Below are positions 2,887-7,623 of a DNA stretch of 64,000 bases, piece after piece. The position numbers were made by a program, and so were the translations under genes. Origin of the DNA: Alphaproteobacteria bacterium (GTDB lineage: Bacteria; Pseudomonadota; Alphaproteobacteria; Reyranellales; Reyranellaceae); contig JAFKFK010000026.1 of assembly GCA_017307275.1 (NCBI GenBank), positions 6,134 to 70,133 on the forward strand. Reading direction: 5' to 3'. A model generated the notes under the pieces. It ran no database searches. It was given only the letters and a program-made list of their open reading frames with translations, and was not told where the DNA came from. Every line of letters starts with the position of its first letter. The stretch's first letter is position 1.

Positions 2887-3384
2887 ATGCGTACCCGTCT
2901 CGTCAGCCTCTTCTCACTCGTTGCAGCCATCGGCCTGACCGCCGGCGCTGCACAGGCCGCCGACAAGTTCGAATGCCCGGCCGTCGGCGGACAAGATGCA
3001 CCGAAGCTCTCGGCCGATCTGGCAAAGAACCTGCCGGCCGGCGGAGCGCTCGACAAACTGGACGCGCTTCAGAATGCCGTCGACCTGCTTCAGACCAACG
3101 GCGTTCGGGCGTCAGACACCGTGAACTATCTGATGGCCAGCTACTGTCCCTGGCTTGCCGGCAACAGCCAGCTCTCGGCTGCCGACAAGACGAAACAGAT
3201 GCGCCGCTTCGCCAACCGGGTAACGGGCCTCGTCTATTCGAGCCAGAGCGCCGAAGAGATCATCTTCAGCGTGCCGCTCAATCCGCGGGAGGCGGCCGAT
3301 CTGGAAGCCCGCGCCCGCGAAGCGAAGATGACGCCAGGCGATTGGATCGCCAAGTCGCTCCGGTCGACGCTGAAGACTCCGTGA
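2887..3384 (+). CDS. Exported hypothetical protein with two Cys and a C-terminal ribbon-helix-helix-like segment
   Basis: Signal peptide ending AQA-A; FECP and SYCP; GGAG-like SD upstream. Confidence 0.7.
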   Translation: MRTRLVSLFSLVAAIGLTAGAAQAADKFECPAVGGQDAPKLSADLAKNLPAGGALDKLDALQNAVDLLQTNGVRASDTVNYLMASYCPWLAGNSQLSAADKTKQMRRFANRVTGLVYSSQSAEEIIFSVPLNPREAADLEARAREAKMTPGDWIAKSLRSTLKTP

Positions 3385-3422: not shown

Positions 3423-4373
3423 TCAGATCAGAAACACAGCCACGCCAAGTGCGGCAGCCACGACCAAGGCTGCCGTGACCTGCCAGGAGCGTAGCCGGAA
3501 GAATGCCGGCCGGCTGCGCCCGATCTCCTGCTGGATTCGTTTCCAGACCTCGCGCGAGGCGAAGGGTTGCTCGGGCAGAAATTCCGTCAGCATTGCCAGT
3601 TGCGCTTCCCAGCGGTCGGCAGCGTGGCAGAACCGGGCATCGCGTTCGCGCCGCCGTTCAAAGCCGCGCCGCGCCGTACCCTGCAGACTGCCGATGGCAT
3701 AGTCCGCCGCCACGAGCGCTCGCCTATCCGCGAGAACTTCCTTGAGAAGGCATTTGCTCATCTGCGCCAGGCCACGCCTGACCCAGCTCTTGGCCGTCCC
3801 GAGCTGGATGCCCAATCGCTCTGCGAGTTCCAGGTGCGTCAGCCCTTCGAAGTAGACCAGCGCGACGGAACGACGGTGATTTGCCGGTAGGTTGCCCAGG
3901 CACGCGTTCACGCGGCGCGCCTCGTCGCTGCGGATGGTCAGCATGAGGGGATCGGGCGCATCGGACACCATTGTCTCGACGTCGATCTCGGCACGACCGA
4001 CATCGCGACGCCCCATGCGCAGGCGTGCCGACAGCGCGCGGTTGCGCACGATCCGCACCAACCAGGCATAGGCCGGTCCCTTGGCGGGATCGTACTGATA
4101 GGCCGCACGCCAGATGCGCAGGAAGGACTCCTGCAGGACGTCTTCGGCGAGGTCGTCGCGTTGCACGATGCGCCGCGCAATAGCGAACAGGCGCGGGGTC
4201 ACGAGTTCATAGAGCCGCGCGAAGGCTCGGTCATCGCCGACCGCGGTTTCGGCCAACAGCCGCGCCAGCGGATCGAACGACGAGGGCGCCGGATTGGGAG
4301 GATCGAGCGCCAGGAGCGAAGGCGGCATCGGTGCCGGCCGCGAAGCGTCGTGAAGCCTGAGAATCTCGACCAT
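3423..4373 (-). CDS. ECF sigma-70 factor (SigK-like) fused to an RskA-like anti-sigma domain and a C-terminal TM helix
   Basis: Region 2 (AEDVLQESFLRIW, AWLVRIVRNRAL) and region 4 (LVYFEGLTHLELAERLGIQLGTAKSWVRRGL), then AADYAIGSL...W...VWKRIQ, then hydrophobic VTAALVVAAALGVAVFLI-stop. Strong SD GAGGAGGT upstream of ATG 4373. Confidence 0.85.
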   Translation of the reverse strand: MVEILRLHDASRPAPMPPSLLALDPPNPAPSSFDPLARLLAETAVGDDRAFARLYELVTPRLFAIARRIVQRDDLAEDVLQESFLRIWRAAYQYDPAKGPAYAWLVRIVRNRALSARLRMGRRDVGRAEIDVETMVSDAPDPLMLTIRSDEARRVNACLGNLPANHRRSVALVYFEGLTHLELAERLGIQLGTAKSWVRRGLAQMSKCLLKEVLADRRALVAADYAIGSLQGTARRGFERRRERDARFCHAADRWEAQLAMLTEFLPEQPFASREVWKRIQQEIGRSRPAFFRLRSWQVTAALVVAAALGVAVFLI

Positions 4374-4398
4374 ATCGAAAGACCTCCTCGGGCCAACT

Positions 4399-4423
4399 AC
4401 CCCGCCGCCGCGCCGTTGGATGC
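4399..4423 (-). promoter_or_regulatory. Candidate ECF-type promoter for the sigma gene (GCATCCAA-N12-GGGGTAG)
   Basis: Motif matches the + strand copy at 4446-4471 and lies just upstream of the SD. Confidence 0.5.
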
Positions 4424-4445: not shown

Positions 4446-4471
4446 GCATCCAAGTCCGGGGGTGCCGGGGT
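4446..4471 (+). promoter_or_regulatory. Candidate ECF-type promoter for the ferritin-like/cytochrome c operon (GCATCCAA-N13-GGGGT)
   Basis: Second copy of the same bipartite motif, facing the opposite way. Confidence 0.5.
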
Positions 4472-4522: not shown

Positions 4523-5110
4523 ATGTCCTCGACCACCCCACAGGCAAGCACGACGACCGACGCGCGGCGCAGCTTCCTGTCCGGCTTTGGCAAATTCACG
4601 CTTTCGGCAACGGCGGTTGCCCTTCTCGCGGGCCGCGACCGGCTGGCGCTGGTCGGATCTGCCGAGGCCAAGACCGCCGGCAACGATGTGACGATCCTCA
4701 ACGCCGCGCTGGCGGCCGAGCAGGAAGCGATTGCGGCTTATCAGGTCGGCGCCACCAGCGGCCTGCTCCAGAAGCCGGTCCTCGACCTCGCTGTCCAGTT
4801 CCAGGGCCACCACAAGGAACACGCGACGGCCCTGGCAACGACCGTGAAGAAGCTCGGCGGCACGCCGGTCGCGGCGAAGGCCAAGTACACCTTCCCCGTC
4901 GAGAAGCTGAAGACCCAGGCCGACGTACTGGGCTTCGCTGCCGAACTCGAGCGTGGCGCCGTCAGCGCCTATCTCGGGGCCATTCCCATTCTCGACGATC
5001 GCGAGCTCGCGAAAGTGGCGGCCTCCATCCTGGGCGACGAGGCCATGCACTGGGCCGTGCTGCGACAGGCGCTGGGCCAGCCGCCGGTGCCCTCGGCTTT
5101 CGTGTCCTGA
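4523..5110 (+). CDS. Ferritin-like domain protein with a Tat signal
   Basis: Twin-arginine RRSFL; helical bundle with E...HHKEH...ELE...DEAMH metal-ligand pattern; SD AAGGAG. Confidence 0.85.
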   Translation: MSSTTPQASTTTDARRSFLSGFGKFTLSATAVALLAGRDRLALVGSAEAKTAGNDVTILNAALAAEQEAIAAYQVGATSGLLQKPVLDLAVQFQGHHKEHATALATTVKKLGGTPVAAKAKYTFPVEKLKTQADVLGFAAELERGAVSAYLGAIPILDDRELAKVAASILGDEAMHWAVLRQALGQPPVPSAFVS

Positions 5111-5135: not shown

Positions 5136-5534
5136 ATGAAACTCCCGTTCGCTCTCTTCATCGGCCTCACGCTCGGGGCCTCCCTGTGTCAGGCAGCGGA
5201 CGGCGATGCCGGGAAAGGCGCGCAGATCTACCAGCGATGCCTGGCGTGCCATTCCCTGGAACACAATCGGAGCGGGCCGCGCCATTGCGGCCTGTTCGGC
5301 CGGCCCGCCGCCGCGGTGCCCGACTTCACCTATTCGCAGGCCCTGAAGTCGGCCGGACTCACCTGGGACGCGGCCACTCTCGACCGCTTCCTGGAAAATC
5401 CTCTCAAAGCCGTCCCCGGCACCAAGATGGCCTATGCCGGTATCAAGAACGGACAGGAACGCGCCGACCTAATCGCCTATCTCAAGCAGGCGACGCACGA
5501 CCCGGCCAAATGCCCGCAAGGATCATCCCACTAG
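5136..5534 (+). CDS. Class I cytochrome c (c2-like)
   Basis: Signal peptide, CLACH heme motif, GP.HCGLFGR, PGTKM axial Met. Confidence 0.92.
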   Translation: MKLPFALFIGLTLGASLCQAADGDAGKGAQIYQRCLACHSLEHNRSGPRHCGLFGRPAAAVPDFTYSQALKSAGLTWDAATLDRFLENPLKAVPGTKMAYAGIKNGQERADLIAYLKQATHDPAKCPQGSSH

Positions 5535-6212
5535 GATGCTGCCTTCCGTGATGATCATGTCCATCGCGATGTCGTGGGGCTGCGGGTAGATGGTCGGAAG
5601 GATCAGCTTCTCGTAGCCCACGCCAAGGATTTGCGGCCGCCGCGGCAGGGCTGCCAAAGTACGATCGTAAAAGCCGCCGCCATTGCCGAGGCGATAGCAG
5701 GCGCGGTCGAAACCAACGACAGGGGCGATGACGATATCCGGTGTCGCCTCCTGCCGTGCGACCGGAACCGGGATGCTCCAGACGCCGGGTTCGAGTTCGT
5801 CTCCCCGCCGCCAGACGCGGAACGCAAGAGGCGCCCGAGGCTCGACGACGACCGGCAGCACGCCCACAGCCCCGCGATCCCCCAGACCTTCCATCCAGGA
5901 TCGCAGGTCGGGCTCGCCCCGGAACGGCCAGTAGACGCCGATGATCCTGCCGGAGATGTCACCCAGCACGCCGTCGAGCGCCTCGACGATCTTCGCCGAA
6001 TGTCGACGCCGTTCCTCGGCAGGGATTGCCACGCGCAACGCAATCAGCCGTTCGCGCTCGGCCTTCCGCCACCGTTTGAGGTCGAGCTGTTGGCGAAGGT
6101 CGGCTTCCGGCACCACGCGGCCCGACACGGGATCGACGAGATGCATCATGCAGGGCGGCGAGCTGTAGAACTCCGGCACGTCGTCTCTGTCGTTGTCGTT
6201 CGCCGAGTTCAT
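5523..6212 (-). CDS. 5-formyltetrahydrofolate cyclo-ligase family protein with an N-terminal extension
   Basis: YWPFRGEPD, PLAFRVW, PDIVIAPVVGFDRACYRLGNGGGFYDRTLA and PQPHDIAMD; ATG overlaps the upstream stop. Confidence 0.9.
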   Translation of the reverse strand: MNSANDNDRDDVPEFYSSPPCMMHLVDPVSGRVVPEADLRQQLDLKRWRKAERERLIALRVAIPAEERRRHSAKIVEALDGVLGDISGRIIGVYWPFRGEPDLRSWMEGLGDRGAVGVLPVVVEPRAPLAFRVWRRGDELEPGVWSIPVPVARQEATPDIVIAPVVGFDRACYRLGNGGGFYDRTLAALPRRPQILGVGYEKLILPTIYPQPHDIAMDMIITEGSILVG

Positions 6213-6649
6213 GCGAGCGCACTGTTCGTCAGGTTGATGTTGGCGACATGCGAGGAGAGCATGTGGCTGAGGTCGGAGAAGAGCGCGTCGTCTCTTACCC
6301 GCGGCGTCACCTCGCGCAGTTTGCGGACGACCCACCCCTGACCGCGATTGAGGAACGCAAGGCGCTCCTTCAGATCCTCGATGGCCATCGCCTTGGCATG
6401 GAACGCCCCCATGCGCGGCGAGGCGGTACCACCGAGAACGCGGATCTGCCGCAACAGCATCGCGCACCATCGGGCCTCGTCGTCCTGAATGGCCTTCAGC
6501 AACCCGACTGTCGCGGGATCGCTCGCATCGCGCGCGCTTTCGAGCGCGACACGCGCGCCGGCGCGCTCGGCTTCGAGCAGTTCGTTCAGGAAATCAATCA
6601 GCTCGTCCCGGCTGATCGGCCCGGTTGGCGCAAGGGTCTGGTCCGTCAT
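6209..6649 (-). CDS. Ferritin-like protein, DUF6306-like
   Basis: LNELLEAERAGA...DDEARWC...AFLNRGQGWVVRKL...SH..NI pattern, recalled from DUF6306. Confidence 0.7.
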   Translation of the reverse strand: MTDQTLAPTGPISRDELIDFLNELLEAERAGARVALESARDASDPATVGLLKAIQDDEARWCAMLLRQIRVLGGTASPRMGAFHAKAMAIEDLKERLAFLNRGQGWVVRKLREVTPRVRDDALFSDLSHMLSSHVANINLTNSALA

Positions 6650-6716
6650 CGTTACTCCTAGGCCCGCATTGTAGGAGCCCTGATTCCATCTGGAAAACGA
6701 AGAAAAATGGCAAATG

Positions 6717-6735
6717 ATATCGAAATACTCGATAT
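6717..6735. promoter_or_regulatory. LysR-type recognition site (T-N11-A within a palindrome)
   Basis: ATATCGA-AATAC-TCGATAT inverted repeat in an AT-rich spacer between the LysR gene and its divergent operon. Confidence 0.75.
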
Positions 6736-6756
6736 TAAGCCGAAACGAGGTTCCCC

Positions 6757-7623
6757 TTGGACACTGAACTTGCACGCACCTTCCTGGCCGTCGTCGCCAC
6801 CGGCAGCTTCGTCAACGCCGGTGAGCGGCTGCATGTGACGCAATCCACGGTCAGCACGCGGATCCACACGCTGGAGACGGCCCTGGGATGCCGCATGTTC
6901 GTCCGCAACAAGGGCGGCACGACGCTGACCCCGGCGGGCAAGCATTTCCAGAAGCATGCCTCCACGCTCGTCCGGACGGTCGAGCAGGCGCGCCACGATG
7001 TCGGCGTCGCCCGCGGCTTTCGCGCCGCCGTCACGGTCGGGGCGCGGCTGGGCCTGTGGGAGCAATTCCTGATCAAGCAATTGCCTTCGCTGCTGGAAAG
7101 AGCCGCCGACATTTCCGTGCGCGCCGAGATCGGTCTCGAGAGCGACTTGATGGAAGGCCTCGTCGAGGGGCGGCTGGACATCGCCATCATGTACACGCCC
7201 GAAAGCCGGCCCGGCCTGAACGTGGAGTTCCTATTCGACGACAGGCTCGTCCTGGTCTCCACCAAAGCGCAGCGGCGACCGGTCCTCGACTCCAGCTACG
7301 TCTACATCGATTGGGGACCGGAGTTCTTCGCTCGCCACGGCGCGAGCTTTCCCGAGTTCTTCGGCGCTGCGCTCTCTGCCAATATCGGCTGGTTGGGCTT
7401 GCAGCATGTGCTCGAAAATGGCGGCTCGGGATACTTTCCCATCCGCCTCGTGCGCCCGCATCTGCAGAGCCGGAAACTAACGATCGTTCCCGGCGGACCG
7501 GAATTCTCGATCTCGGCCTATGTCGTCTATCCTACCGACGCCGACATAGGCGTCATCGGTCCAGCGCTCGACCTCATCCGCGACGCGGCGGCGCTGGAGA
7601 GAAAGCCCGACGACCCTGCTTGA
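6757..7623 (+). CDS. LysR family transcriptional regulator (HdfR-like N-terminus)
   Basis: TTG start; MDTELARTFL...LHVTQSTVSTRIHTLE helix-turn-helix. Confidence 0.92.
   Translation: MDTELARTFLAVVATGSFVNAGERLHVTQSTVSTRIHTLETALGCRMFVRNKGGTTLTPAGKHFQKHASTLVRTVEQARHDVGVARGFRAAVTVGARLGLWEQFLIKQLPSLLERAADISVRAEIGLESDLMEGLVEGRLDIAIMYTPESRPGLNVEFLFDDRLVLVSTKAQRRPVLDSSYVYIDWGPEFFARHGASFPEFFGAALSANIGWLGLQHVLENGGSGYFPIRLVRPHLQSRKLTIVPGGPEFSISAYVVYPTDADIGVIGPALDLIRDAAALERKPDDPA

Follow-up and report, generated by a model that had tools for sequence, protein, structure and literature searches.

The window analysed here is a stretch of 64,000 nucleotides (64 kb) from contig JAFKFK010000026.1 of assembly GCA_017307275.1, an alphaproteobacterium of the family Reyranellaceae. 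At positions 3423-4373, on the reverse strand, it carries a gene for a single polypeptide in which a sigma factor of the extracytoplasmic function (ECF) type is continued by what appears to be an RskA-type anti-sigma domain (ASD) and then by a C-terminal transmembrane (TM) helix. The features of this gene, in window coordinates and with the evidence for each, are as follows.

3423..4373, (-): whole gene, encoding a 316-residue fused ECF sigma / anti-sigma domain / tail-anchor protein; open reading frame (ORF) and translation, stop codon at 3423-3425.
4384..4390, (-): ribosome-binding site (RBS) of the fused gene, GAGGAGG, 10 nt 5' of the ATG; sequence, with a GGAG-type block conserved in the upstream alignment.
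4278..4373, (-): N-terminal leader, residues 1-32; alignments, with the heptapeptide M-[VG]-E-I-[LF]-x-L and then a variable Pro/Ala-rich stretch.
3747..4277, (-): SigK-like ECF sigma core, residues 33-209, with sigma2 at 4017-4214 and sigma4 at 3759-3914; Pfam, NCBIfam and PDB searches.
3900..3902, (-): Cys158 codon, aligned to the Cys of RRVTECLKAL in 4nqw_A, which is Cys133 of Mycobacterium tuberculosis SigK.
3750..3752, (-): Cys208 codon, aligned to the Cys of LRNCLD in 4nqw_A, which is SigK Cys183.
3513..3746, (-): linker and ASD, residues 210-287, RskA-type, with no zinc motif; hhalign, profile search and AlphaFold.
3627..3629, (-): Cys249 codon in the ASD, motif RDAR[YF]C; Cys in 86 of 86 fused proteins.
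3426..3506, (-): C-terminal transmembrane tail anchor, residues 290-316; AlphaFold helix, Kyte-Doolittle scan and alignment with the RskA TM helix.

The 316 codons and the stop form one unbroken frame. Its start was placed at the ATG at 4373, where the MVEIL or MGEIL N-terminus of all relatives begins; a longer ORF from the TTG at 4547 (374 residues) was rejected because it would take in the conserved promoter and RBS and because all homologues begin at MVEIL/MGEIL. A preliminary description of the locus, made from the letters alone, had quoted peptides of the extension as belonging to the same uninterrupted frame, and these (LADRRALVAADYAIGSLQGTARRGFERR, RWEAQLAML and VWKRIQQEI) are indeed found at residues 213-283, followed by the hydrophobic helix WQVTAALVVAAALGVAVFLI and the stop codon. 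It had also held that the neighbouring gene on the opposite strand ends too close by to leave room for a periplasmic domain, which is correct apart from the size of the gap: the convergent ORF ends at 3384, and 38 nt, not 39, separate the two stop codons, so that nothing downstream could supply a periplasmic part. This convergent gene (2887-3384, (+)) encodes a secreted protein of 165 residues that belongs to no Pfam family and occurs only in the three closest relatives (L005-L007). The secreted protein was considered as a partner and rejected on account of this narrow distribution.

Both sigma regions announced in the preliminary description were recovered by Pfam, Sigma70_r2 at residues 54-119 (E 1.3e-16) and Sigma70_r4_2 at residues 154-205 (E 1.3e-10), and there was no Pfam match to sigma region 3 in the fused protein. 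The TIGR02937 model scores 85.6 bits, above its cutoff of 42.9. By its regions 2 and 4, and without region 3 or 1, the protein is an ECF (group 4) sigma-70 factor. Its best NCBIfam alignments are to SigK-like models, over residues 33-213 and all under their curated cutoffs; the SigK model PRK09646, among the best matching, reaches 134.6 bits and so falls below its threshold of 226. The nearest relative of the sigma core in the PDB is SigK (4nqw_A, E 2.4e-31) and not FecI. In an alignment of 86 sequences that includes distant fused members, Cys158 is a cysteine in all 86 and Cys208 in 84. The corresponding Cys133 and Cys183 of SigK are disulfide partners, and the pair modulates the interaction between SigK and RskA and is needed for activation (PMC7509140, PMC7826278).

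The C-terminal extension was recognized by way of its relatives. Aligned by hhalign with the RskA protein of locus L036, which carries an RskA_C domain (E 2.2e-22), it gives a probability of 97.7%, an E-value of 1.5e-12 and 41% identity over 95 columns that cover both the ASD and the TM helix. Run as a profile against 1.84 billion representatives, the extension matched 1438 proteins (E<=1e-3); most of these are 220-250 residues long and align at their residues ~5-107, and each of the seven matches that were sampled carries RskA_C (PF10099). Through these intermediates it is clear that the extension should be read as an RskA-type anti-sigma factor reduced to its N-terminal half, the ASD with the TM helix. 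RskA_C itself was not found in any of 32 family members, and the fused protein contains no FecR or other extracytoplasmic Pfam domain. The zinc motif HxxxCxxC occurs in none of the 86 extensions, in which only one cysteine, Cys249, is retained; the domain is therefore not a zinc-binding anti-sigma (ZAS) domain.

A linker of ~13 residues connects the sigma core to the ASD, a domain of ~75 residues with four predicted helices (217-227, 232-244, 246-265 and 274-287; pLDDT ~80-95). Across the 86 sequences the extension is conserved as strongly as the sigma core, with G228, R242, D245, C249, W255 and W277 invariant. The terminal helix (residues 290-315, pLDDT ~95) contains the end of the chain. With a Kyte-Doolittle 19-residue window of >=1.6 as the criterion, 139 of 155 family members (~90%) end in a TM helix, after which there is a median of one further residue and a maximum of eight, and a juxtamembrane (F/L)W(Q/R) motif is common to the fused TM helix and RskA. 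Taken together, the homology to the ASD and TM helix of RskA, the lack of RskA_C and the 0-8 residues beyond the membrane bear out the earlier proposal of one polypeptide with sigma factor, anti-sigma domain and TM helix and no periplasmic sensor. The protein is predicted to sit in the inner membrane by its tail anchor and to expose practically nothing to the periplasm.

The preliminary description had called for a search for full-length fused homologues and for an estimate of the selection acting on them, and the outcome of both is that the fusion is conserved. In a collection of 5.8 billion proteins at least 120 homologue clusters were found at 57-98% identity, nearly all of 303-321 residues and hence of the same length class as the 316-residue protein, and altogether more than 150 protein clusters carry the same fusion. 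The named members among the clusters listed belong to Reyranella or Enhydrobacter, and public annotations of the family go no further than "sigma-70 family RNA polymerase sigma factor". When one genome was scanned for each species, the fused gene was located in 29 of them; the carriers are Reyranella massiliensis 521 (96%), many Reyranella metagenome-assembled genomes, one member of the Sneathiellaceae, one of the Rhodobiaceae, and Tepidicaulis. More distant fused representatives are present in a library clustered at 50% identity (P0124, P0137, P0138, P0153, P0241). The ratio of nonsynonymous to synonymous substitution rates (dN/dS) was computed by the Nei-Gojobori method for 12 pairs of genomes. 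Its range in the sigma core, 0.07-0.24, is matched by that in the ASD, 0.03-0.24; the TM tail gives 0.13-0.72 and the leader 0.12-0.93. We regard it as practically certain that this is a real, conserved fusion.

N-terminal extensions are rare in ECF sigma factors, and the fused protein has one. The heptapeptide of the leader is kept across the Reyranella-type family and is followed by a Pro/Ala-rich stretch of ~25 residues with pLDDT <50; the leader could act as a degron or a regulatory peptide.

About 8% of the members have no C-terminal TM helix (loci L008, L010 and L027; proteins P0005/6, P0009-P0013, P0015, P0095 and P0119). At least five distinct tail replacements can be told apart, each present in two or more diverged clusters. 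The variants still possess the ASD with the three cysteines, and at their loci the adjoining operon and the two promoters are retained as well. They would be soluble single-chain sigma/anti-sigma proteins.

The origin of the fusion can be approached through unfused relatives of the sigma core, which are 33-46% identical to it and are followed by the gene of an anti-sigma partner, usually with an overlap of 4 to 46 nt. The partner is a full-length RskA (ASD-TM-RskA_C) in Brucella/Ochrobactrum, Hyphomicrobiaceae, Alcanivorax and others, and a soluble ChrR-like ASD-cupin protein of ~172-186 residues in sphingomonads, Asticcacaulis and Roseobacter. The loci with an ASD-cupin partner are L033-L038, L043-L049, L054, L059-L060, L064-L067, L070-L073 and L078-L082. 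A split minimal form occurs in L085 and L087, where a sigma gene (called products of 196 and 185 residues) and a gene for an ASD plus TM helix (112 and 107 residues) overlap by 4 or 14 nt, with genes for a ferritin-like protein exported by the twin-arginine translocation (Tat) pathway and then for a cytochrome c downstream. The equivalents of Cys158, Cys208 and Cys249 are all present in these split pairs, and that of Cys249 also in the closest full-length RskA relatives, which share the motif RDA-x-YC. A single SigK-like sigma lineage thus appears to use four anti-sigma formats.

As a finding that would tell against it, the preliminary description had named two-gene relatives with a stop/start overlap at the junction and a full RskA C-terminal domain, together with a fusion unique to this assembly. 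Two-gene relatives with such an overlap do exist, but their anti-sigma protein likewise lacks RskA_C and the fusion is not unique. Since the split anti-sigma factor is also without RskA_C, the sensor must have been lost in the whole module and not only in the Reyranella fusion. In a maximum-likelihood tree of sigma cores, a single clade with an SH-aLRT support of 80 unites the 34 fused sequences with the two split minimal ones and with two sequences that are paired with an RskA (L036, L068), and on this tree the fused state takes one or two changes. The most economical history would lead from a sigK/rskA-like pair through loss of RskA_C to fusion by read-through. The loss would have left a sigma factor and a tail-anchored anti-sigma factor of 107-112 residues encoded upstream of the ferritin-like and cytochrome c genes; read-through of the overlapping stop and start would then have joined the two regulatory genes; and the ferritin operon would have been inverted later, in the Reyranella/Sneathiellaceae lineage, to give the divergent arrangement seen in the window. 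That arrangement comprises the following features.

4523..5110, (+): likely target gene 1, encoding a Tat-signal ferritin-like protein (Ferritin_2 / DUF4439) of 195 residues; PF13668 E 4.8e-34, PF14530 E 4.2e-14, RRSFL twin-arginine motif.
5136..5534, (+): likely target gene 2, encoding a periplasmic class I cytochrome c (CLACH) of 132 residues; PF00034, conserved together with the ferritin-like gene.
4399..4423, (-): putative ECF promoter of the fused gene, GCATCC-N15-GGGT(A); conserved upstream motif.
4446..4471, (+): putative ECF promoter in front of the divergent operon for the ferritin-like protein and the cytochrome c, GCATCC-N16-GGGT(T); conserved motif on the opposite strand.

The association between the fused gene and this pair is tight: the two genes adjoin it in 28 of 29 genome loci and adjoin none of ~50 unfused SigK-like loci, and they are also adjacent in L090 and L091. 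They are divergent from the fused gene in Reyranella and the Sneathiellaceae and lie downstream on the same strand in the Rhodobiaceae, Tepidicaulis, L091 and the split forms. Both products are exported and have N-terminal membrane-inserted signal sequences, and in every module variant inspected the second gene encodes a CxxCH motif. The alignment of upstream regions shows TGCATCC-N15-16-GGGTA before the sigma gene and a mirror-image GCATCC-N16-GGGTT facing the ferritin operon. A strict match is situated 33-62 nt upstream of the start codon of the sigma gene in 26 of 30 loci and on the opposite strand in 21 loci, and the only two strict matches in the window are the two listed above. The family-wide form is GCATCC-N14-18-GGGT, and the motif background, measured on 643 kb of unrelated loci, is 0.012 per kb. 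No sigma-70-type promoter was found in the intergenic region between the fused gene and the ferritin-like gene. From the conserved promoters and synteny we infer that the fused gene is autoregulated and would also control the adjacent operon, and it is quite likely that the ferritin-like/cytochrome c operon is the regulon of the fused sigma factor.

Two fused-sigma loci, L028 and L089, have no adjacent ferritin-like/cytochrome c pair, and L028 keeps the sigma promoter; they may be paralogues or secondary losses, with the pair perhaps located elsewhere in their genomes. Among solved structures the Tat ferritin-like protein has a single relative, RvY_06210 of a tardigrade (E 6e-7), and PF13668 is reportedly mentioned in a paper entitled "Metabolite phosphatase from anhydrobiotic tardigrades". 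Given this relative, the bacterial ferritin-like protein may be neither an iron-storage protein nor a ferroxidase. The literature found on DUF4439/Ferritin_2 contained nothing about the bacterial Tat-exported form. Genes for a 5-formyltetrahydrofolate cyclo-ligase and a DUF6306 protein follow the cytochrome c gene (5523-6775, (-)); they are in the same neighbourhood in L003 and L004 but not next to the module in Enhydrobacter L001, and probably lie outside the module. In the split locus L085 the cytochrome c gene is immediately followed by an AhpC/TSA-redoxin gene (5515-6021, (-)), which hints weakly at a connection of the module with peroxide or redox stress.

How the fused ASD might act on the sigma factor was explored by structure prediction. 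An AlphaFold model built from the 86 sequences reached a mean pLDDT of 83.8 and a pTM of 0.78. When its two sigma domains were compared jointly with known structures by Foldseek, RskA-bound SigK (4nqw_A) was matched with a TM-score of 0.73 and a root-mean-square deviation (rmsd) of 4.6 A, and RNA polymerase-bound ECF sigma factors (9m9e_F, 6jbq_F, 6dv9_F and others) with rmsd values of 22-27 A. The relative pose of sigma2 and sigma4 fits RskA-bound SigK and not the polymerase-bound factors, and the model therefore shows a compact arrangement of the anti-sigma-bound kind. Residues 1-86 of RskA are sufficient to inhibit SigK in mycobacteria, residues 1-85 of Yersinia enterocolitica RskA are inhibitory in both Escherichia coli and Y. 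enterocolitica, and longer truncations from which most of the outer part has been removed inhibit as well (PMC7509140). The model and these experiments lend indirect support to the auto-inhibition in cis proposed in the preliminary description, and we consider it likely that the fused ASD inhibits its sigma factor in this way.

The explanation that we favour, and hold to be somewhat likely as a whole, is a single-chain switch that is latched in cis, is triggered from the cytoplasmic side and has the ferritin-like/cytochrome c operon as its output. In the resting state the ASD would be wedged between sigma2 and sigma4 of its own chain, as RskA is in the SigK-RskA crystal complex; binding of RNA polymerase would be blocked, and the TM helix would hold the protein at the membrane. 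A signal would be read on the cytoplasmic side by the thiols of Cys158, Cys208 and Cys249, with the result that the contact between the ASD and sigma4 is loosened, and the freed sigma factor would then read the GCATCC-N14-18-GGGT promoters of its own gene and of the adjacent operon. The trigger is the least certain step of this explanation. Reading of the signal in the cytoplasm is most likely, because there is no periplasmic sensor and because the TM-less variants keep the ASD. A thiol or redox trigger is put forward tentatively and is slightly favoured over a site-2-protease route, which would itself be a possible but doubtful choice. Veyrier et al. suggested from lineages that have lost the sensing part of RskA that a signal may be sensed by SigK itself (PMC7509140). 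Applied to the fused protein, this would make the sigma factor the sensor, with the cysteine pair and Cys249 reading the redox state of the cytoplasm or of the membrane-proximal region without proteolysis, as a reversible one-component switch that turns on the periplasmic ferritin-like/cytochrome c redox pair; we treat this as conceivable, though on the doubtful side.

Several observations weigh against the favoured explanation. Cis-inhibition rests on a predicted structure, judged from scores and Foldseek superpositions, and the first AlphaFold model, made from 32 close homologues, was poor (pLDDT 67, pTM 0.38); the Foldseek result obtained with it was set aside as uninformative and replaced by that of the 86-sequence model. 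RskA can also activate SigK (PMC7509140), and the extension is perhaps not purely inhibitory. The identity of the extension is established through RskA-family intermediates only: the extension alone and the 32 alignment members gave no direct match to an anti-sigma Pfam family (E<=10 or E<=1), and the extension profile gave no match among PDB sequences at E<=10. The promoters are assigned by conservation only, and about one strict match to the motif would be expected by chance in the 64-kb window. Cys249 is not specific to the sensor-less forms, since full-length RskA relatives have it too. Because sigma factor and ASD are covalently linked, the sigma factor could be freed only by a shift in conformation or by cleavage within a very short linker. 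Lastly, ~90% of the members have retained the TM helix, and M. tuberculosis RskA is a substrate of Rip1, a site-2 protease (cited in PMC7509140); a proteolytic route would fit both.

The last two points belong to a rival explanation, proteolytic activation, which the preliminary description had suggested alongside sensing within the membrane. It accepts the same architecture and has a site-2 protease of the RseP/Rip1/MmpA type cut the tail anchor, unshielded by any periplasmic domain, without a prior site-1 step, after which cytoplasmic proteases would remove the ASD and free the sigma factor; regulation would then lie in the access or activity of the protease or in the membrane. Besides the cleavage of RskA by Rip1, this explanation has a precedent in the fused protein IutY, which is activated by Prc and RseP (PMC8999054, PMC5411451). 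The TM helix kept in 139 of the 155 members and the juxtamembrane motif shared with RskA also speak for it. With 0-8 periplasmic residues the site-2 step could not be gated, and constitutive cleavage would be expected, an argument carried over from the gating of RseP substrates; moreover, a protease proceeding from the new C-terminus would meet the covalently attached sigma factor, at least five TM-less tail variants, which tell against obligatory cleavage and also weaken sensing within the membrane, keep the ASD, operon and promoters, and no protease gene is conserved in the module. On these grounds we think proteolytic activation rather unlikely. Further from the favoured explanation is the idea that the extension is a positive, pro-sigma element, comparable to RskA in its activating state or to the FecR N-terminal domain: the sigma factor would need the fused ASD for full activity, fusion would ensure a 1:1 stoichiometry, and the factor could work without being detached or once its conformation has shifted slightly. 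RskA is indeed both activator and inhibitor, SigK alone is in a "low-on" state and activation needs the two SigK cysteines that are conserved in the fused family (PMC7509140), and the C-terminal extensions of ECF41/42 have positive as well as negative roles (PMC8999054). Yet the cytoplasmic RskA fragments are inhibitory in M. tuberculosis and Yersinia, activation required RskA's membrane-extracellular part, which the fused protein lacks (PMC7509140), and the sigma2/sigma4 pose of the model fits an inhibited complex and is far from the polymerase-bound poses; such a role is improbable.

More improbable still is a feedback in which the tail anchor takes over from the RskA_C sensor and reports on the exported ferritin-like protein or cytochrome c, for example if the TM helix touched their signal peptides or the machinery that exports or matures them. 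It would make sense of the strict co-occurrence of the sensor-less anti-sigma factor, fused or split, with the two genes, and of the membrane-inserted signal sequences of both products. The proposal is purely inferential, however: co-occurrence is explained equally well if the genes are the regulon, the TM helix is the least constrained part by dN/dS, and variants without it exist. There remains the possibility, raised in the preliminary description as a recent fusion or decay event, that the gene is an assembly artefact, a recent frameshift fusion or a decaying pseudogene of a sigK-rskA pair. Close two-gene relatives with overlapping stop and start are known, and a single indel could fuse their frames. 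Against this stand the recurrence of the fused frame in independent assemblies, with 29 species genomes and over 150 clusters, dN/dS values far under 1 for the junction as well as the ASD, the conservation of synteny and of the promoters, and the clustering of the fused sigma factors in the tree. The conservation of the frame in independent assemblies, the purifying selection and the synteny exclude an artefact or recent decay, for which hardly any credence is left.

Membrane-type anti-sigma factors are thought to need a domain on the outside, for the reception of the signal and for the gating of stepwise proteolysis. Here a conserved family has discarded that domain, and most of its members have fused the remaining latch to the sigma factor. 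The result is a small system, one protein and two promoters, in which to ask how a covalently attached anti-sigma domain is released, and whether the SigK cysteine pair can act alone as a sensor, as Veyrier et al. suggested (PMC7509140). If the sigma factor is the sensor, the family would be a natural experiment for the proposal that SigK senses independently of the outer domain of RskA. The switch is also compact and self-contained, which would suit synthetic circuits, and the analysis assigns a candidate regulator to an uncharacterised periplasmic ferritin-like/cytochrome c pair.

A fusion of sigma and anti-sigma factor is not a new principle, since such proteins are already known: IutY experimentally, and ECF48/52/53 and some ECF36/ECF270 by prediction (PMC8999054, PMC5826349). 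ECF sigma factors regulated by C-terminal extensions make up 19 groups of the current classification (PMC7826278). The group ECF220 has a C-terminal extension and TM proteins encoded at +1/-1 (PMC7826278), and was rejected as a home for the family because its representative is from Sorangium (PMC8999054). The main text of the ECF reclassification (Casas-Pastor 2021) mentions no RskA-fused subgroup, although one may be catalogued in the ECF Hub, and our literature search found no paper describing the present family, and none on tail-anchored anti-sigma factors of ECF sigmas.

The closest known system is SigK-RskA of M. tuberculosis and Yersinia (ECF18/ECF19; 4NQW; PMC7509140), which offers the closest solved sigma factor and shares both cysteines, the ASD and TM helix, the predicted sigma2/sigma4 pose and, probably, an autoregulated promoter next to target genes. 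The Reyranella protein differs in being one polypeptide, in lacking RskA_C and in its SigK score, which is under the cutoff, and its neighbours are the Tat ferritin-like/cytochrome c pair, whereas SigK has mpt83/mpt70. According to Veyrier et al. the cysteine pair goes with a full-length RskA (PMC7509140), while in the Reyranella family it goes with a sensor-less one. The truncated RskA of Nocardia (81 residues; PMC7509140) has likewise lost its sensing part, and its remnant is a cytoplasmic ASD that still inhibits SigK. That remnant is separate and soluble and its SigK is without the two cysteines; the Reyranella family keeps the TM helix and the cysteines and has the ASD fused. The anti-sigma factor of L085 and L087 is split, as in Nocardia, but tail-anchored.

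Other single-chain regulators resemble the fused protein in plan and less in parts. IutY of Pseudomonas putida (ECF243; PMC5411451, PMC8999054) is also a membrane-anchored single chain with an N-terminal sigma factor and a C-terminal anti-sigma domain and TM helix. It is of the FecI/FecR type, with a large periplasmic domain signalled by a TonB-dependent receptor and activation by Prc and RseP, and since the fused protein has no periplasmic part, the site-1 logic of IutY cannot apply to it. The actinobacterial groups ECF48, ECF52 and ECF53, for example SCO4117 (PMC5826349, PMC8999054), have a C-terminal extension that is interpreted as a fused anti-sigma domain with TM helices after it, and are predicted one-component switches. 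In contrast to the Reyranella family, they have a ZAS domain, extensions of up to ~400 residues and Pro-rich and carbohydrate-binding extracytoplasmic parts, and they come from a different phylum and a different sigma branch. ECF41, ECF42 and ECF238 (PMC8999054, PMC7826278) share the absence of a separate anti-sigma gene and a C-terminal extension that regulates in cis by contacting the core, but these are soluble proteins, and their extensions, which are SnoaL-like domains, tetratricopeptide repeats or Cys-rich tails, have no relation to anti-sigma domains. The present family differs from these systems in its SigK/RskA lineage, in lacking any extracytoplasmic part, in having a split minimal counterpart and in its close association with a Tat ferritin-like/cytochrome c pair.

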